A stretch of 64,000 nucleotides of DNA from a virus, in the IMG/VR virus record IMGVR_UViG_3300047160_018755, positions 64,001 to 128,000 of that record; one strand, given 5' to 3'. The notes below the pieces were generated by a model. It saw only the letters and a program-made list of their open reading frames with translations, was not told the DNA's origin and searched no databases. Both the position numbers and the translations under genes were made by a program. Every line of letters starts with the position of its first letter. Position 1 is the first letter of the stretch. Of the stretch, positions 5,787 to 45,415 are shown piece by piece.

Positions 5787-6583
5787 ATGGAAACACAACG
5801 GACGTGTCAGGTGTGCGAGGGCCTCGGCGTCAATGTCTCTGCCGGCTTCGAATTCGAGGGGCGCAAGTACCCCGAGACCCGCCGGCCGTGCAGCACGTGC
5901 CTGGGCAAGGGCGTCATGCAGGCGCCCGACTTCGTCGCCATCTTCAAGGCGGTGACCACCACGCGTGGGGCCAGCAAGGGTGGGCGGCGCTTCCGTCAGT
6001 CTGCTCCCGAGGGCTGGAAGCAGTCCAACCAGGGCGTCGACAACCGCCGCGCGTACTACGTGTGGCGCCTGGCGCGCTTCCACGGCGGCGCTGACGTCAC
6101 CATGCCCATGACGGCACAGCTGTTCTGCGGGCGTGACGCGTGGGTCGCGGAACTGGACTACTACGCTTCGCTGCTGGCCAAGAAGGTCTACGGGACCGAC
6201 CTGGCCGGCGCACATCGGTGGGCGCGCGCCCTGGGCGGCGACATCAACATCGAAGGGCTTCCGGCCACGGCCTACGAGTGTGGCCCGGTTCACGACGGCA
6301 ACAAACCCAGCTTCGAGCGAGAGGAACTCAAATGAACACGAACGTCGACGGCATCATCATCCAAGATCATGGCGAGCAGGTCCCCGACGACAAGGCGGTG
6401 GCCCGCGCGCAGCTGGAGGCCCAGTACGGCGAGGTGCTCGACACCAGCCAGATGCAGGCCAAGTACAGCGTCGAGGGCTTCGCGGCCCCCTACGTCGTCG
6501 TGACGCGCAAGGAGGACGGCGTGCGGGGCAGCCTGGCCTTCACTCACAGCCCGCGCTTCTACCACACGTTCTGCGCGGACTGA
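5787..6583 (+). other. Two hypothetical genes (5787-6335 with N-terminal Zn finger; 6332-6583)
   Basis: CxxC..CxxC motif; ATGA overlap. Confidence 0.6.
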
Positions 6584-7494: not shown

Positions 7495-9434
7495 ACCCTC
7501 TCTTCGAGAAGGGCGCCACCATGGTGCTCAAGGACAAGAAGGAGCCCAAGCGCAAGCTGCGCTATGCGTTGGGCATCGACGCCAACGGCGTCCCCCTCAA
7601 GAAGGGCGACCGCGTGAAGTGGACCGAGGCGTACACGCGCCGGCTCTACTTGCGCTCGCGCCAGCACCGTGCCGAGTTCATGGGCCAGGTGGGCGTGGTC
7701 GAGGATCTGTGCAAGTGGGGCGAGGAGCGCGGCCCCGAGGTCAACGTCCGCTACTTCCACAGCAACTTCTTCGGCAAGTCCAAGAACGGCCTGCGCTACT
7801 CGGCGCACCCGAGCGACCTGGTCAAGGTGACCCCATGACGGGGATCTCATGTGAGAGGGCTCGATTTTTCCTTGACACGGATCCCCGATTGTGAGATAAC
7901 AAAACCATGCCAACACAAAAGTTCCTTCGTGAATCCCAAGAGCGGACCTACCAGGCGATCGAGACCCTCGGCGAGGTCTCGGCCTACGACGTCATGGACG
8001 TGGTTGCAGCCGGCCTGGAGGGAAACAGGGCCTTCGCGATGCGCCAGCGGGTGAGCGGCGCGTGCTCCGAGCTTCACGCCGAAGGCCGGATCGTCAAGGT
8101 CGGACGCAAGGTCAACCCTTCGTCCGGGGAAACTGTCAACGTCTACCGCGCCAACCCCGAAGGCACGTCGTGCAGCTGCGGCAACTGCCCCGGCGACGGC
8201 GCCGATGGCGAAGGGGCCGGCTACAAGAGCAAGTACGAGGCGCTCTTGGAGAAGTATCAAGCTCTTCTGGCCGAGCGCGTACCGCTCTGCCGTGACTGCT
8301 GCACAATCCTGTGCCGCAGCTGCACGACGAACCGCAACCGAGCCACTTTGGTTGCGGTTGCCTGACCAAGACCAGTTCTTCGCCTAAATCTCTGGTACGG
8401 AGCGCGGCATGCTGCGCAGGGAGAGCCTGCGAGGGGTGTCTCGGGAGTGTCCTACCTGTTGAAACACCGGCTCCGTACCCTCTTTTCCACCACATGAAAG
8501 GATCCACATGACGACCAGCGAGATGTCCACCGACCTCGTCAAAGAGGTGACCGCCAAGCTTCACGAGCAGATCGACGCCGCCATCGAGGCGCGCAACTCC
8601 GCCTTCCAGGCCATGACGCCGGCCGAGAAGCGCAAGACCGTCGCCTACGACGTCCTGGAGCAGCTGTACCAGAAGCGCTTCGTGGCCCATTGCGGTCAGT
8701 GGCTCTCGTCCAACGACGTGACGGGCCTGCGCAACATCGACCGCTACGAGATCATCCCCAAGGAGGCGCTGGACGCCGATGCGCAGACCGCCATCGCCGG
8801 CAAGACCTGCGACGTGTGTGCTCTGGGCGCGCTCTTCGCCTGCACCATCGAGCGCCAGAACAGCATCGACATCGCGGGCGTGCGGCGGGCCGACTTCCGC
8901 GGCATCAGCGCCTACCTGACGGGCATCTTCGATCGCCGCACCCTCAACCTCATCGAAGCGTGCTTCGAGCGCCGCCGCGACTCCTGCGACTTCATGGACT
9001 ACGACAGCACGACGCGCCAGGAGGACGAGGTCCGCGTCAACACGTGGCTCAAGTACCACGGCAGCGAAAGCTCCTCCGAGCGCATGGTCTCGATCATGCG
9101 CAACATCGTCCGCCACGAGGGCGAGTTCGCGGTCTAGATGACGTGGGCTGAGCTACGAGATGCACTCCAGTGCCGGCACCTGAGCGGGCGACACTGGAGC
9201 AACGGCGAGTGGCCGCACATCTACGAGTTCGCCTGCAACGACTGCGCCTTCTGGTGGACCAACACGGTGGTGACGACGCGCCCGCCACAGTGGGACTGGG
9301 CGGACTGGCTCATCGATCACTGGCTCGATCCGTACCACGCCTTCGCCGACTGCATCAAGCGGGAGGACGACCTGCCCTGCAAGGAGTGTCGCGAGTACGC
9401 GATGGATGCCGTGGGTGCGCCACGCAGGAGTTGA
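7491..9434 (+). other. Hypothetical genes 7491-7838, 7907-8365 (possible winged-helix), 8508-9137, 9138-9434
   Basis: RBSs; TTGACA at 7872 before 7907; coding-like composition. Confidence 0.6.
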
Positions 9435-9488
9435 ACCTGCAACCTTTCCCTTAGGAGGGGACTGCTCGTCCAATCGAGCTAGAGGCGC
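9416..9488 (-). tRNA. tRNA-Arg(CCT)
   Basis: Cloverleaf, anticodon loop CTCCTAA, T-loop TTCAACT. Confidence 0.85.
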
Positions 9489-9494
9489 GTGGGT

Positions 9495-9567
9495 GCTCTT
9501 CGTAGGGATCGAACCTACATCCACAGGGCTTAGAAGGCCCGGGTCTTTCCAGTTGATGTAGAAGAGC
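9495..9567 (-). tRNA. tRNA-Arg(TCT)
   Basis: GCTCTTC/GAAGAGC acceptor, loop CTTCTAA; overlapped by the 3' end of the HNH gene. Confidence 0.8.
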
Positions 9568-9952
9568 GCTGATAGGTCCGCTCGCGGTGGCAATTGGCGC
9601 ACACGAGATCACATTTGGCAATTTCTGCTAGAATCTTGGACCGAGAGCCGTACTCACTCAACATGGCGACGCCGGCTACCTTCTTCTCTCCCGGACGATG
9701 ATCCCAGTCCATCACGTACGGAGGGTAGGCGACTCCACAGTCGGAGCACGGCTTCCCAGCTTTCAGGGACCGAGCGAAAGCAACGATCTCTTTTCTGTGA
9801 ACCTTCGCCTTCTGTAGGTATTTCCTCTTGTTCTTGCGGTAGTGCTCGTCCTTGTACGCCTTCTGGCACGATCTACAGAACGGCTGGAGCCCGTTCCTCT
9901 TCTTAGAAAACTCAGAATCTGGCTTCGGACCACACTTGGAGCAAATTGCCAT
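9530..9952 (-). CDS. HNH homing-type endonuclease
   Basis: CSKC..CRSC N-terminal Zn finger; CSDC...DWDH...CDLVCANCHRERT; lower GC; AATCTT 6 nt before ATG. Confidence 0.85.
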   Translation of the reverse strand: MAICSKCGPKPDSEFSKKRNGLQPFCRSCQKAYKDEHYRKNKRKYLQKAKVHRKEIVAFARSLKAGKPCSDCGVAYPPYVMDWDHRPGEKKVAGVAMLSEYGSRSKILAEIAKCDLVCANCHRERTYQRSSTSTGKTRAF

Positions 9953-9979
9953 GTTTTCAAGATTGTGATCCGATGAAAG

Positions 9980-10051
9980 TAGCCTGTGAGGGTGCCGCCC
10001 CCTCTTTGCCGCCTTGAAAGGGCGGAAGCCTAGCTGTTGACCGAACAGGCC
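9980..10051 (-). tRNA. tRNA-Glu(TTC), atypical T-loop
   Basis: CCGCC-CTTTCAA-GGCGG anticodon arm; T-loop GGCGGCA. Confidence 0.7.
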
Positions 10052-10115
10052 GTGAATCCTCACTAAACTGCCATATCTCACCGCAAAGTGAGGATTGATA
10101 ATTTAGTGAGGTATG

Positions 10116-10186
10116 TAGCCCTATGGGGACTCGAACCCCATCCATCTGGCTGAGAACCAGAGATCCTACCCATAAACGATAGGGCC
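10116..10186 (-). tRNA. tRNA-Glu(CTC)
   Basis: TCTGG-TTCTCAG-CCAGA; GGTTCGAGTCC. Confidence 0.85.
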
Positions 10187-10191
10187 ATGAG

Positions 10192-10264
10192 CATGTCGTC
10201 AAGGAATCGAACCTTGCTTTTCCGTTTTGGAGACGGAACCGTTCCCAGGACCGGTCAACGACAT
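10192..10264 (-). tRNA. tRNA-Trp(CCA)
   Basis: TCCGT-CTCCAAA-ACGGA; GGTTCGATTCC. Confidence 0.85.
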
Positions 10265-10280
10265 ATAGAATTCTGCACGG

Positions 10281-10354
10281 TAGGCTCGGTCGGGTACGAT
10301 CCGACAGCCGTTCGCTTAAAAGGCGACTGCTCTGTCCGTTTGAGCTACGGGCCT
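10281..10354 (-). tRNA. tRNA-Lys(TTT)
   Basis: Loop CTTTTAA; T-loop ATCGTAC. Confidence 0.8.
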
Positions 10355-10410
10355 GTGTGTCGGCTGTTTATGAGCCCACCGATCCGCCGACCGATCGATG
10401 AGAATCCCTG

Positions 10411-10482
10411 AGCGCGCTGCGAGGATCGAACTCGCTCCGTCTGGGTGGAAGCCAGGTATGCCGCCAAGTACACCTAGCGCGC
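10411..10482 (-). tRNA. tRNA-Gly(TCC)
   Basis: GCGCGCT/AGCGCGC acceptor, U73, loop CTTCCAC. Confidence 0.85.
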
Positions 10483-10499
10483 AGAAAGGAAATAAAGGA

Positions 10500-10657
10500 G
10501 CCGGTGTGCTACCGTTACACTAAGTCCGACAGAGGCAGCGTTTCACTCTAGACGTTTTGGCGACTTGATCAGGGCCGCTACTGGCTGTCCTAGCTGCATG
10601 TCCCTCCCACCGTATCAGGGCAAGAGGTTTGGTGTGGAGTCGAACCACTCCACCGGC
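10500..10657 (-). ncRNA. Permuted tRNA-like RNA A (T-arm first, D-arm last, about 100 nt structured insert)
   Basis: GCCGGTG..CACCGGC closing stem; GTGG-TTCGACT-CCAC at 5'; TA-GTGT-AACGGTA-GCAC at 3'. Confidence 0.6.
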
Positions 10658-10660
10658 TTT

Positions 10661-10734
10661 TGGAGCACCTACCGCGAGTCGGACGCGGGCTTCCTCGTTG
10701 GCAACGAGGTTTGCTACCGTAACAACTTAGGTGC
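10661..10734 (-). tRNA. tRNA-Gly(GCC)
   Basis: GCACCTA/TAGGTGC, loop TTGCCAA, encoded CCA. Confidence 0.85.
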
Positions 10735-10757
10735 GTATTTCGTAGTCTTTGGCAAAC

Positions 10758-10880
10758 TTACATTCGTAGATCCGCCCTGTGTCCGTCACTAAAGGGAAGC
10801 AGGACCTTCTTCCCGGCGCGCACCAGGGCTGCCAAGATCATCGCCTTGGATAAATCACCAACTCCTGTTGTATCGCGCAT
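10758..10880 (-). pseudogene. Truncated PD-(D/E)XK homing endonuclease relic
   Basis: MRDTTGVGDLSKAMILAALVRAGKKVLLPFSDGHRADL then stop; resembles the N-terminus of PDDEXK_5-type endonucleases. Confidence 0.6.
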
Positions 10881-10882
10881 TG

Positions 10883-10955
10883 TTGCGGAGGTCGGATTCG
10901 AACCGACGTATGGCTGGGTATGGGCCAGCTGAATGGGCCACTTTTCTACTCCGCA
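10883..10955 (-). tRNA. tRNA-Met(CAT)
   Basis: GCTGG-CCCATAC-CCAGC; GGTTCGAATCC; initiator/elongator/Ile2 identity not resolved. Confidence 0.8.
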
Positions 10956-10975
10956 GTGTATTTCTATCGAATCTG

Positions 10976-11050
10976 TAGGTCCGGTGGGGGATGATCCCAC
11001 AACCTTTCGCTTAAGAGGCGATTGCTCTGAACCAGTTGAGCTACGAACCT
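10976..11050 (-). tRNA. tRNA-Lys(CTT)
   Basis: Loop CTCTTAA; T-loop ATCATCC. Confidence 0.8.
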
Positions 11051-11107
11051 GTGGGGGTCTCTCCCTCAGTCAAGCCTGGATTTCGCGGCGGCTTTCCCTA
11101 CTTTGGC

Positions 11108-11184
11108 GCTGGCGACTTAAACCACTCGTCCACAGGCCCGATCTTTCGAACGAGCCCGGCGGGATTCGAACCCGCGTCTCCAGC
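11108..11184 (-). ncRNA. Permuted tRNA-like RNA B (YrlA-like)
   Basis: GCTGG-AGAC-GCGGG TTCGAAT CCCGC-CGGGCTC-GTTC GAAA GATC-GGGCCTG-TG-GAC GAGTGGTTTAA GTC-G-CCAGC. Confidence 0.8.
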
Positions 11185-11191
11185 AATTCCG

Positions 11192-11458
11192 TTACCTGCG
11201 CTTCTTGCTGTCGAGCTTGGTCGCGAACGACCTCTCGGCAGAGCGCTGAAGATCGAGAGCCTTGCTGTCCATCGTCGAGCCACGCTCGGTCACGACCCAG
11301 CCCCTGCTCCACTTGCCCTCGTCGTCCTCGGCACTGTCGATCAAGATCTCGACGTGCTTGCCGACCTTGGCGAAGCTTGTTGGAATGAAGGCGGTGTGAA
11401 TCTGCTTGCCGCCACCTTCGCACGGCCTTTCCATCCTGCATTGCGTGTACGATGCCAT
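11192..11458 (-). CDS. Hypothetical protein inside the tRNA cluster
   Basis: AAGGA RBS; 88 aa. Confidence 0.6.
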   Translation of the reverse strand: MASYTQCRMERPCEGGGKQIHTAFIPTSFAKVGKHVEILIDSAEDDEGKWSRGWVVTERGSTMDSKALDLQRSAERSFATKLDSKKRR

Positions 11459-11481
11459 CTGACTTCTCTCTTCCTTGTTTG

Positions 11482-11553
11482 TGGACCAGCAGGGAATCGA
11501 ACCCTGATCTCCGCAGTGCGAAAGCGGCGTCTTCCCATTGATACGACCAGCCC
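11482..11553 (-). tRNA. tRNA-Ala(CGC)
   Basis: G3:U70 pair, loop TTCGCAC. Confidence 0.85.
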
Positions 11554-11617
11554 AAAGTAATGGGTCGGTTACGACCGACTGGCACCTCGTGGATGCCATG
11601 TAGCCGACTGACCCTCG

Positions 11618-11689
11618 TGCGCCTCGCTGGGATCGAACCAACGGCCTCTCCCGTGTCATGGGATTGCTCTTCCGCTGAGCTAGAGGCGC
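11618..11689 (-). tRNA. tRNA-Val(GAC)
   Basis: Cloverleaf, loop ATGACAC. Confidence 0.85.
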
Positions 11690-11692
11690 AGG

Positions 11693-11766
11693 CTCCAGTG
11701 TGCTACCTTTACACTACCGCGCCCATAGTGGTGGGCTTGGGCGGACTTGAACCGCTACTCCTGGAG
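11693..11766 (-). ncRNA. Permuted tRNA-like RNA C
   Basis: CTCCAG-GAGTA-GCGG TTCAAGT CCGC-CCAAGCCC-ACCACTAT-GGGCGCGG-TA-GTGT AAAGGTA GCAC-A-CTGGAG. Confidence 0.75.
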
Positions 11767-11771
11767 TTTCG

Positions 11772-11843
11772 TGCGTCTTGATGGGATCGAACCACCGGCC
11801 TTTCCCGTGTGAAGGGACTGCTCTACCGCTGAGCTAAAGGCGC
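11772..11843 (-). tRNA. tRNA-Val(CAC)
   Basis: Cloverleaf, loop TTCACAC. Confidence 0.9.
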
Positions 11844-11910
11844 ATGTTTGGGAGTCTTCTTCACTCCCCACGTCTTGGACTATTTAATTTTCAGAGATCC
11901 GAACCCACTC

Positions 11911-11987
11911 TGGCTCCGGAGGACCGACTCGAACGGTCATCTACATCTGGTTAACAGCCAGGCGCTCTGCCATTGAGCTACCCCGGA
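11911..11987 (-). tRNA. tRNA-Asn(GTT)
   Basis: TCCGGGG/CTCCGGA, loop CTGTTAA, CCA. Confidence 0.9.
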
Positions 11988-12013
11988 AAACGCCTGGCCT
12001 GATCGGCTCAGGG

Positions 12014-12133
12014 TTACTTCAGGGTGGCTTCTACTTTGGCGCCGCCAGCCCACCCCATGCCGGCAGCGCACACGTTCGCCTCGGCCTTATTGGCCTCCGC
12101 GATCATGACGTTGACGTTGGTGTTGGTGAGCAT
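12014..12133 (-). CDS. Putative leader peptide of tRNA operon 1 (39 aa)
   Basis: MLTNTNVNVMIAEANKAEANVCAAGMGWAGGAKVEATLK; TAATCT motif and GAGG upstream; 26 nt before tRNA-Asn. Confidence 0.65.
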   Translation of the reverse strand: MLTNTNVNVMIAEANKAEANVCAAGMGWAGGAKVEATLK

Positions 12134-12265
12134 GACTGGAACCCTCAGTAGATTAGGACTCGAAAACCGATCCACTACACTTCTATCGAATCTCGACGGA
12201 GAAAGCAAGCGAATACGTACATCCCCGCATTGCTTTTTCTGGCGTAACCTGTAGGGTGACGCGCC

Positions 12266-13057
12266 ATGGGAACAGAGGGTAGCAAGCGCAGGGCGGATGT
12301 GGTAGTATCGTCGAATGAGCACGGGGTTTGCATCTTCCACCCCACGAACCTGAGAGCACAGACGTGGCTGGCACAGAACGTGTCGGCCGAGTTCCACGAC
12401 AACGGCCACGTACGCTGTGGCCCGTTCAAGGCGGCGCAGCTGGTCTACTGGCTCGCCCTGGAAGGATTCGAGGTCAAATGACGAGCCGCATCAGACGCAA
12501 GACGCCGGTCAAGAAGCTCTACCCGTCCCAGGTCAAGGCCGAGTGGAAGAGCCTGGGACGTCGCGCCATACGCTTGTGGAAGCTGTCGGCGGGGCTCGAC
12601 CCCGAAATCGACAAGCTCTTCAAGCGCATGGACGCGTGTGATCGTGCGATGGCTAGGGAAGCTCGACGTCAGAGGCGCGAAGCTTCCGTACGATAGCGTC
12701 CGCCTCGTCCGGAGGCACGCCGTGCTGCTGGAGCAGTCCAGAGAGGCGCTCGAACACGTGGTTGACGCCGAACGTGAAGCTGTCGCTGTTGCGCGACACC
12801 ACCGCACCAGGTGGGCGCCAGCACACGATGCAGCGCTCCGCGGTGACATCCTCGTCCGTGGGGAGGGATTCCTGTGGCGCGGCGCCGCCCGGCACGGTCA
12901 CGTCTTCCTCTGCGTCTACAACAGATACGCTCATTTCGCACTCCTGGGGTTGACCGATCATGTTCGCCGGTATATCACACTGCATCCTGTCAGGGAAGCC
13001 CTTATCGCACAAAAGCGCCACGATCGTGACACCTACAATGGATCTCACAATACGTAG
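12266..13057 (+). other. Hypothetical genes 12266-12481, 12478-12696, about 12638-13057
   Basis: Overlapping ORFs, no family recognised. Confidence 0.45.
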
Positions 13058-19413: not shown

Positions 19414-19795
19414 TGCTCACGAAGCTCCTGAACCCCATGGGGATCAGGCTCACGAACGCGAGCGCCGCCTGGATCGTCCTCGGCACCCTTCTTTCACTCG
19501 GTCTGCACGTGGCGTTCTACGGGACGCTGCTCCACTTCGTCATCAAGTTCTGGTAGGAGGCACATGTCGTTCGTTCCGAAGATCAAGAAAGCGAAGCGCA
19601 AGGCCATCGCCCGTCGTTCGGGCAAGACGATCGCGTCGGCCATCGACCGTCTCAACGCGAAGCTCACCAAGCCCCACCAGTTCCCGGTCCACGAGAACAA
19701 CCAGCTCCACAAGACCTCAGCGGCGATCGCCGAGGACGCCCGCCGTCAGGAGCGCCTGATGGACCGCAAGCGCTGGAGCCACGCGGGCTGATCGG

Positions 19796-32876: not shown

Positions 32877-33012
32877 CAGGTATCCCTCCTGACAACCAAG
32901 ATTAAGAGCGGAACAAAAAAGAAGGAAGGGTCAGGTCCCGCACCCTCTCCGTTTTCTGCGTTACCGGAGACTCCCGTGCAGTAAGGGATTGTGAGGTGAA
33001 GGACCTGATTTG

Positions 33013-33394
33013 TGGACCCGCGGGGAGTCGAACCCCGATGTCGGAAACTTTGCGATCGAGCTTGTACGTGCGTTTCCTCGTTTTCGGGGGCTAGGGATCG
33101 AGGTGTCCCGGACTACGGCGCCCTCCACCACCTGGTTTTGCTGACCAGGAACAGTTGGTTTCCCTCTGTAGTTGTTTCTCAGGCGGCTACTAAGGGGCCT
33201 CACCGTCTGAGATTCGATTAAGCCGCGAGCGCGCGAGCGCCGTAGCCACCGAAACCGTTCGCCTCGATCAGATCGAAGGGAACGTCGAACTCATCGTTCG
33301 CTTTTCTTTTTTGGTCTTCTTTTTACGAGGCCTGATGACCAACCTCGGCACGCGTCTCAGTCCCTCTGTTCCCGGTCGATGCCGGTTCGGGCCC
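33013..33394 (-). ncRNA. ssrA: tmRNA
   Basis: 5' GGGCCCG-AACCGGCATCGAC; 3' GGGGTTCGACTCCCC-GCGGGTCCA with G3:U70; tag ORF 33301-33218 ANDEFDVPFDLIEANGFGGYGARALAA*. Confidence 0.92.
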
Positions 33395-40702: not shown

Positions 40703-40779
40703 TGGTACCCGGAGCGGGATTCGAACCCGCAACCTCCGCGTTCTGAGCGCGTTGCCTCTGCCGATTGAGCTACCCGGGC
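40703..40779 (-). tRNA. tRNA-Leu(CAG), short variable loop
   Basis: Loop CTCAGAA, A73, CCA, 5-nt variable region. Confidence 0.8.
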
Positions 40780-40784
40780 GTGAG

Positions 40785-40869
40785 TGCGATCGACAGGACT
40801 CGAACCTGCACGCCCGTTACGGGCACCGGACTCTCAATCCGGCGGGTCTACCAATTCCCCCACGATCGC
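40785..40869 (-). tRNA. tRNA-Leu(GAG)
   Basis: CCGGA-TTGAGAG-TCCGG, long variable arm. Confidence 0.9.
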
Positions 40870-44902: not shown

Positions 44903-45415
44903 TTACGTGATCGCGGGGAGGTCGGCCGCGGTGACGTTTTCGGAGTTCTGCGTGGACTCGTCGTCCATGCCGAGCGCGACGAAGGTGACGGTCAGCTCTT
45001 CGAGGTTGCGGGCCGAGATCGTCGTCGAGAAGCCGGTGCAGCGCACGTTCTTGAAGTGCGCGATCGAGTCCGGCAGACCGAGGGCCTGGCGCTGGCGGTC
45101 GTAGATGTCCAGCGTGAGGTACTCGGTCAGGAGGAGGTCCTGGAGCTTCGGCAGACCCGCTTCGACCCAAGGGCCGTGCTCGATGACTCGGAAGCCCGAG
45201 CACGTGATCGAGACGAGGTCCATCGACGTGTAGTCCACTTCCGCGGCGCCGAAACGACCCAGCACGTAGGCTGGCTGCGTCTCGTACGTCATGTTGTAGC
45301 TCACGTTGTTGAACAGACCCACGACGTGGCTGGTACCGTCATTCGGGTTGAAGACGTTCAGCTTCGCGCGGGCGCCCGACATCACTTTCGGGGCAGTTTG
45401 CTTGGTGGCGGCCAT
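44903..45415 (-). CDS. Contractile tail tube protein
   Basis: 170 aa directly after the sheath; VMSGARAKL...VLGRFGAAEVDYT. Confidence 0.75.
   Translation of the reverse strand: MAATKQTAPKVMSGARAKLNVFNPNDGTSHVVGLFNNVSYNMTYETQPAYVLGRFGAAEVDYTSMDLVSITCSGFRVIEHGPWVEAGLPKLQDLLLTEYLTLDIYDRQRQALGLPDSIAHFKNVRCTGFSTTISARNLEELTVTFVALGMDDESTQNSENVTAADLPAIT

Follow-up and report, generated by a model that had tools for sequence, protein, structure and literature searches.

A 158-nt element between two glycine tRNA genes of a phage, referred to here as element D, carries a T-arm and a D-arm in the reverse of their tRNA order, closed by a stem of its own. The best explanation of our results is that D is an enlarged, lineage-specific paralogue of a compact neighboring element, C, and that these two and another element of the same operon, B, are all tRNA mimics of the YrlA type. 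The fuller reading that we favor, to which we give about an even chance, is that D is a Ro60-independent mimic of this type that presents a tRNA elbow, and that its long insert is an expanded form of the variable middle stem. A previous sequence-only reading had described D as the third permuted tRNA-like RNA of the region and as a possible undescribed class of non-coding RNA with an extra structured domain. The count was correct, the other two elements being B and C (Table 1). The proposals of a new class and of an extra domain are not borne out by the results below.

Genome and operon context

The genome of this uncultured phage is complete (182,279 bp, direct terminal repeats, 63.4% G+C), and the window, i.e., the whole 64,000-nt stretch analyzed here, corresponds to its bases 64001-128000. 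ARAGORN detected 29 tRNAs and one tmRNA in the window, every one on the minus strand; the tmRNA (33012-33394) is a standard one of the phage itself. Element D is located in the first tRNA operon (9414-11987, minus strand). Reading along the minus strand, the upstream tRNA-Gly(GCC) stops with ...CTCCA at 10661, and an AAA spacer (10660-10658) separates it from D, which confirms the earlier observation that D starts 3 nt after the CCA. The closing stem of D is thus bounded by AAA on one side and by a pyrimidine tail on the other, followed on both sides by tRNAs. No promoter-like or terminator-like site was found between D and its tRNA neighbors.

Table 1. Positions of element D, its parts, its paralogues and the adjacent tRNA genes in the window
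Feature	Positions	Strand	Basis
Element D, entire permuted tRNA-like RNA, 158 nt	10500..10657	-	sequence, scanner hit, MFE and constrained folds
Upstream tRNA-Gly(GCC) with encoded CCA	10661..10734	-	ARAGORN; 98.6% identity in relative L213
Closing stem of D, 5' strand GCCGGTG, analogue of the 3' strand of the anticodon stem	10651..10657	-	pairs with 10500-10506 in MFE
T-arm of D, GTGG-TTCGACT-CCAC, 4 bp, A.A mismatch at the would-be fifth pair	10634..10648	-	T-arm scan; covariance-model local match, 6.2 bits
Middle piece (insert) of D, 111 nt	10523-10633	-	sequence
P1 hairpin, 9 bp including 3 G-U, 7-nt loop CUGAUAC	10603..10627	-	MFE; comparison with C
P2, branched region, 75 nt, without counterpart in B, C or other modules	10528..10602	-	MFE alone
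U8-A9, D-arm GTGT-AACGGTA-GCAC and A26; 18-mer TAGTGTAACGGTAGCACA	10505..10522	-	sequence
Closing stem of D, 3' strand CACCGGC	10500..10506	-	sequence, MFE
Pyrimidine tail/spacer TCCTTTATTTCCTTTCT, 17 nt, 16 pyrimidines, reaching the RNase P site of tRNA-Gly(UCC)	10483..10499	-	sequence
Downstream tRNA-Gly(UCC)	10410..10482	-	ARAGORN
Element C, compact paralogue of D with closing strands CTCCAG/CTGGAG, a T-arm, a hairpin of 5 bp and the D-arm shared with D	11694..11765	-	fold, covariance model, alignment to D
Element B, with a loop-capped acceptor-like stem of 7-8 bp and a class-II-like D-loop	11108..11184	-	fold, covariance model

Several other features of the tRNA genes were recorded. The tRNA-Gly(GCC) gene has an unusual T-loop, TCCGACT, and tRNA-Trp (10191-10264, minus strand) has an atypical D-arm, its best Rfam score being tRNA-Sec-like at a sub-threshold 37.8 bits. 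A 90-nt ARAGORN call of tRNA-Thr(GGT) at 19612-19701 (minus strand) is isolated, far from both operons, and has neither a canonical T-loop nor Rfam support; we take it to be probably spurious. The operon also holds an ORF for an HNH-like/zinc-ribbon endonuclease (9530-9955, minus strand), of which a 41-nt piece matches positions 6001-6041 of the metagenome contig L213, inside an ORF located 3' of tRNA-Lys(CTT) in that contig. An 88-codon ORF (11193-11459, minus strand) ends a few bases before element B and had no homologue among 5.8 billion proteins. No Pfam family matched this ORF or the ORFs on either side of the operon (E up to 1). Two stretches of the pyrimidine tail of D, CUCCUUU and UUCCUUUCU on the minus strand, are similar to the anti-Shine-Dalgarno 3' end of 16S rRNA; the plus strand of the tail reads AAAGGAG and then GTG, but the frame there is 15 codons only.

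Wiring and folding of element D

From 5' to 3', D consists of a closing strand, 3-5 nt, the T-arm, the middle piece, U8-N9, the D-arm, one base and the second closing strand. The closing stem, the T-arm and the pyrimidine tail that had been proposed from the sequence are all present on the minus strand. The bases that build the elbow of a tRNA are in place: U8, A14, G18-G19, A21 and the T-loop UUCGA, within a T-loop TTCGACT, a D-loop AACGGTA and a TA preceding the D-stem. For the 15-48 pair, C has A with U, and D has the non-canonical A with G. The wiring of D corresponds to a tRNA in which the anticodon loop has been opened: the closing stem is the counterpart of the anticodon stem and the middle piece that of the acceptor stem. 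The two inner pairs of the closing stem compete with the last pair of the D-stem, and the closing stem is effectively 5-6 bp long plus a position-26-like A.

The minimum free energy (MFE) fold of D includes the D-arm and the closing stem as well as the two hairpins that had been named for the insert, P1 with its 9 pairs and 3 G-U between CCTCTTGCC and GGTGGGAGG, and GACA.GCAGC/GCTGC...TGTC. A rival 5-bp hairpin displaces the canonical T-arm in this fold. When the canonical T-arm, the D-arm and the closing stem were forced, the energy was -52.5 vs. -53.0 kcal/mol for the MFE, a cost of 0.5 kcal/mol, and P1 and the outer P2 stem also remained. With the connectivity and the bases for the tertiary contacts both fitting, the description of D as a permuted tRNA-like elbow mimic holds. 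The T-stem and P1 are 6 nt apart and are followed by the 75-nt branch; no helix directly abuts the T-arm in D.

Neither ARAGORN nor the Rfam tRNA model (RF00005) gave a canonical tRNA call over D, in which the arm order is reversed. Three other assignments were considered and set aside. A circularly permuted tRNA or a two-piece tmRNA does not fit, with no complementary acceptor strands around the insert and a 20-nt loop where the ends would be joined. The closing strand GCCGGTG is typical of a tRNA-Thr acceptor stem, and D could be drawn as a tRNA with swapped T- and D-arms on such a stem; this was rejected because its linkers, 3-5 nt on the 5' side of the T-arm and 1 nt behind the D-arm, are those of the YrlA wiring. 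The same linker lengths are common to B, C and the modules that other phages carry; in addition, GCCGGC is a short palindrome. The P1 loop CUGAUAC might be taken for an Ile anticodon loop; its YU...R pattern is a 1-in-16 coincidence, and no such loop occurs in B or C.

Elements B and C

We scanned both strands of the 64-kb window for T-arm hairpins (TTCRANN loop, stem of at least 4 bp) and found six outside the annotated tRNAs and tmRNA. Half of these (10634-10648, 11159-11175, and 11741-11755) are on the same strand as the tRNAs and are confined to ∼1 kb of spacer of this single operon, and behind each of the three comes a D-arm and then closure by a 5-7 bp stem. This clustering of T-arm modules in one operon exceeds chance. 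No long flanking stems were found around D, C or B.

Element C folds as a clean four-way cloverleaf whose MFE and centroid structures coincide (z -1.83). The D-arm 18-mer of D recurs once, with one mismatch, at 11699-11716 in C (expected 0 in 100 shuffles), in agreement with the earlier remark that the two D-arms are nearly identical. Over the shared core, 45 of 71 aligned bases of D and C are identical (63%), vs. 39-55% between D and other modules. The closing stems of C and D are completely different and yet both pair, with 17 of the 18 D-arm bases and all elbow bases kept.

Folding indicated an acceptor-like hairpin in both B and C. After the T-stem, D and C share CCAA and then a C-rich hairpin strand, so that P1 of D occupies the place of the 5-bp hairpin of C and only the 75-nt P2 is additional. 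By this alignment D looks like C with an enlarged hairpin and a 75-nt extra branch. The insert therefore does not wholly replace the acceptor stem, as had been proposed: its first hairpin, P1, sits at the acceptor-like hairpin of C, and the second branch of 75 nt is the only extra part.

Evidence on the insert

The insert is no more stable than shuffled sequences (z 0.06), and whole D gave a z of -0.37. Rfam searches over 9000-12500, run both at gathering thresholds and with E values of up to 10, returned only tRNAs and noise and left D uncovered, no family being matched. The insert occurs once in the genome and has no complementary site there, the matches elsewhere being of 10-11 nt, at chance level, in either orientation. 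Searches of 50,697 GenBank phage records with D, B and the region (megablast and blastn) yielded only short tRNA-like fragments.

The D-arm motif was found at 116 loci of IMG/VR, of which 82 belong to ordinary tRNAs (mainly those for Trp, Gln and Gly(UCC)). A pattern scan of IMG/VR for a T-loop, a gap of 98-128 nt and a D-arm gave 91 loci, and each one inspected proved to be either a pair of tRNAs or, as in L144, a tRNA of normal order with an insert; none of these was D-like. The exact arms of D had no match in JGI metagenomes, and the 3' end of tRNA-Gly(GCC) had none in IMG/VR. The large structured insert, or extra domain, of the sequence-only reading is accordingly unsupported as a conserved and folded unit: it lacks a stability signal, an Rfam match and a second copy, and, as described below, a homologue at the syntenic slot of L213.

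The 18-nt D-arm of D also occurs in a normal-order tRNA-like gene of a GC-rich 172-kb phage (L144:4415-4545, minus strand), with acceptor strands GCCGGTG/CGCCGGC followed by ACCA and an insertion of ∼60 nt in the anticodon region; ARAGORN did not call it. L144, L125, L126, L131, and L186 are unrelated phages.

Relatives of the operon in metagenome contigs

The 286-aa protein encoded next to the operon has homologues at 55-72% identity, which led to the metagenome contigs L211 and L213; further members of its family occur on contigs of 18-55 kb. Other window proteins used as probes gave no match, three of them in IMG/VR and a fourth in GenBank phages, and the GTDB genomes searched for protein relatives gave nothing. 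L211 and L213 share the start of the operon (leader, tRNA-Asn, and tRNA-Val) at 75-77% identity, and L213 additionally has tRNA-Gly(GCC), 98.6% identical to that of the phage. None of B, C and D is present in L211 or L213 where these contigs cover the slots, and the spacers between the Val tRNAs are unrelated in sequence, which makes the modules lineage-specific.

L213 is the one relative spanning the slot of D between the Gly tRNAs, and it lacks D. The conserved insert structure expected of an extra domain is thus missing from the single informative relative, which leans, as far as one contig can indicate, against a conserved insert. In the place of D, L213 has a tRNA-like gene (acceptor GGTCTCG/CGAGGCC, encoded GCCA) split by an IS1595-family element. 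This element (L213:6250-8390) encodes a DDE_Tnp_IS1595 transposase and a 212-aa ORF with a weak DruA-like match, and has the inverted ends CATGCTTATCCGGTT/AACCGGATAAGCATG. It is inserted just 3' of positions 8-9 of the unannotated tRNA-like gene, whose acceptor stem has a G3-U70 pair.

Comparison with YrlA and other tRNA mimics

The wiring of D is that of the tRNA-like module of YrlA (RF02553), described by Chen et al. (2014; PMC4201824) and seen in the 2018 crystal structure of the tRNA-like domain of S. Typhimurium YrlA, an L-shaped tRNA mimic (bioRxiv 10.1101/312249). Its elbow mimicry, for which an undescribed class had been suggested, is on this comparison not a new class, since the same wiring defines the YrlA module. 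YrlA RNAs are known from phages and beside tRNAs (PMC4201824), and their middle stem is variable in length and much longer in some species (PMC4201824; 10.1101/312249). Like YrlA, D has a terminal stem in place of the anticodon stem, a variable linker, a T stem-loop, a middle stem-loop and a D stem-loop, with the same elbow bases and with neither an anticodon loop nor a free CCA. It differs from YrlA in its 111-nt branched middle piece and in the lack of a helix stacked on the T-arm, and D, C, and B together differ in being three copies set as "genes" between tRNAs. We conclude that D is a lineage-specific variant of the already known YrlA-type mimic; its 111-nt insert would then be the variable middle stem in expanded form and not a conserved functional domain.

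YrlA binds Ro60 through a long terminal helix with a conserved 5'-strand motif, GNCGAAN0-1G. D, C, and B have no such long Ro60-binding helix and the motif is absent; their closing stems of 5-7 bp abut tRNAs. The YrlA RNA of M. smegmatis has a 7-bp acceptor-like stem, which makes it a substrate of RNase P, and is bound by Rsr. Element B, with its stem of 7-8 bp, could likewise be an RNase P substrate; D is without such a stem, and RNase P cleavage inside D would not be expected. The tmRNA and circularly permuted tRNA genes also have a rearranged order, yet they keep a chargeable acceptor stem with CCA. D resembles them in mimicking a tRNA in rearranged order and differs in having no chargeable acceptor stem or CCA.

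The Rfam YrlA model has a gathering threshold of 69 bits; it gave no match over D at E up to 10, and its best score in the operon was 15.2 bits, for B. A module scanner was run on 1.8 Mb of tRNA-rich loci of IMG/VR phages, with ARAGORN tRNAs excluded and at least 5 closing pairs demanded, and returned clean modules of the same wiring in L046, L072, L013, L021, L121, L204, and others. A covariance model was built solely from six modules of other phages, five of which scored 33-39 bits with the Rfam YrlA model (E 1e-9 to 1e-6), below the 69-bit threshold. This covariance model matched C at 29.2 bits (E 8e-8) and B at 28.6 bits (E 1.3e-7), scores equaled by ordinary tRNA-tRNA junctions (29.4 bits at 40749-40813), so that the model cannot by itself tell modules from dimeric tRNA junctions. 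Such junctions were pointed out as false positives by Chen et al. (PMC4201824). D could not be aligned to the model because of its 111-nt insert. In an alignment of nine modules (B, C, D, and the six phage modules), 92.8% of cells pair, vs. 36-50% with the partners slid. The closing helix is 100% paired in the nine modules and has two-sided changes at four of its five pairs, a figure inflated by the scanner, which selected for closing pairs.

Permuted modules of another kind, single or double and set in long stems with the motif TTCAGCAA/TTCCGCAA, were seen in L062, L070, L175, L183, L018, L031/L051, and L026. D, C, and B differ from the modules of L062, L070, L175, and L183 in lacking the long flanking stems and the conserved motif. 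Rfam at gathering thresholds found nothing over the long-stem permuted RNA in L018, L026, L031, L051, L062, and L070. In L183 the double-module RNA (980-1180) is followed by a gene for a 483-aa protein with DUF2828 and DUF7788 (1194-2645), which may be a divergent Ro60-like partner. In the phage tRNA array of L086 (6259-6456), a Drum RNA (75 bits) adjoins a skipping-rope RNA (67 bits).

Search for a Ro60 partner

We searched the complete genome with the TROVE HMM and obtained no candidates, positive controls being detected. The genome also had no match to DUF2828 or DUF7788, and its sole VWA protein (439 aa) is without the TROVE part. The only GenBank relative of the phage is Myxococcus phage Mx1 (OR576727.2), with 35.7% identity over one late protein. 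Mx1 encodes a TROVE protein (WNM70118.1; L210:13916-15565) in its tRNA region; used as a tblastn query by two routes, this protein had no match in our genome. Among the proteins of the Mx1 tRNA region, the VWA protein alone has a counterpart in our phage.

About 11.6 kb upstream of its TROVE gene, Mx1 has an unannotated YrlA-like RNA between tRNAs (45169-45297, 32 bits, E 3e-6), with the module at 45199-45265 (L210:2200-2266). This RNA holds one clean module, wired as in D and with the T-loop TTCGACT that D also has. Mx1 differs from our phage in its Ro60-type partner, in a longer, two-part terminal stem and in a 7-bp middle stem. Some 20 further T-arm hairpins were seen in Mx1 outside the annotated tRNAs.

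Weighing of the alternatives

The main rival to a Ro60-independent mimic, which we judge rather unlikely, is that B, C and D are evolutionary debris: young, functionless by-products of recombination in a mobile tRNA array, with the insert as junk spacer. They might, for example, be what remained of two tandem tRNA genes after the loss of both outer halves, and look intact merely because they are young. If both genes of such a pair are of one tRNA species, the inner remnant has this exact wiring and, at no cost, a complementary closing stem; B keeps a 7-bp acceptor-like stem. The array is in flux: it holds the HNH endonuclease gene, L213 has an IS1595 element in a tRNA-like gene at the slot of D, gene order and tRNA content vary between relatives, and the corresponding arrays of L211 and L213 lack the modules, although the flanking tRNA-Gly(GCC) is 98.6% identical in L213. 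The insert, for its part, carries no thermodynamic signal. The difficulty with debris is the donor, as no tRNA of the phage has these D-arms, T-arms or stems, and three separate events would be needed, each trimmed precisely to an intact closing stem abutting tRNAs. Nor does it sit well with the agreement of C and D in their D-arm and elbow bases while their different closing stems still pair, or with the recurrence of the same wiring in Mx1 and in the unrelated tRNA arrays of many phages.

Two further readings give D a different function. One is the original proposal of a new class of RNA, in which the elbow is a handle and the insert of ∼100 nt a conserved structured domain, for example, a binding platform or sensor. 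P1 and the outer P2 stem do occur in the MFE fold and persist with forced arms, and D has been retained although the operon is compact with little other spacer; the z values of insert and whole element, the single copy in the genome, the empty Rfam search, and the lack of a homologue in GenBank phages, the IMG/VR pattern scans, JGI metagenomes and the syntenic relative make it very improbable. The other is a true Y RNA partnered by a Ro60 or Rsr of the host, the RNA coming from the phage and the protein from the host. The TROVE gene and YrlA-like RNA in the tRNA region of Mx1 and the YrlA RNAs reported in phages and beside tRNAs (PMC4201824) would fit, but the long terminal helix and its motif are lacking in D, C, and B and the YrlA model scores are at most 15 bits, and we regard this as the least probable of the readings discussed here.

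Proposed origin and role of the RNA

Under the favored reading, a Ro60-independent YrlA-type mimic, D would be co-transcribed with the operon tRNAs. Trimming of the 3' end of tRNA-Gly(GCC) would generate its 5' end, and RNase P cleavage at the 5' end of tRNA-Gly(UCC) its 3' end, so that the enzymes maturing the neighboring tRNAs would release an RNA of ∼160-180 nt; from its position in the operon, we infer that D exists at least transiently as such a processing product. In the released RNA the T- and D-loops would form a tRNA elbow, and the RNA would act without Ro60. The most speculative step is that D may occupy or titrate a host factor that recognizes the elbow, such as a tRNA-processing or -modifying enzyme or a tRNA-targeting defense protein. 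With no anticodon loop and no CCA end, D would be neither cut at an anticodon nor charged. A decoy role of this kind for an elbow-binding host factor is conjecture. The broader version, that phage operons hold a family of Ro60-independent, anticodon-less elbow mimics cut out by tRNA processing to serve as decoys, with the 75-nt branch of D as an add-on that traps a partner, seems to us improbable.

The claim of a domain-bearing new RNA class does not stand on present evidence. To our knowledge, tRNA mimics of the Y RNA type have been studied so far solely as partners of Ro60. Three such modules in a tRNA operon of a complete genome without Ro60, together with a relative, Mx1, that has both, suggest that the module can persist, or be put to new use, in the absence of Ro60. 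Should these RNAs accumulate, they would provide a simple test case for the binder of the YrlA-type elbow, a question left open by the structural work (10.1101/312249).
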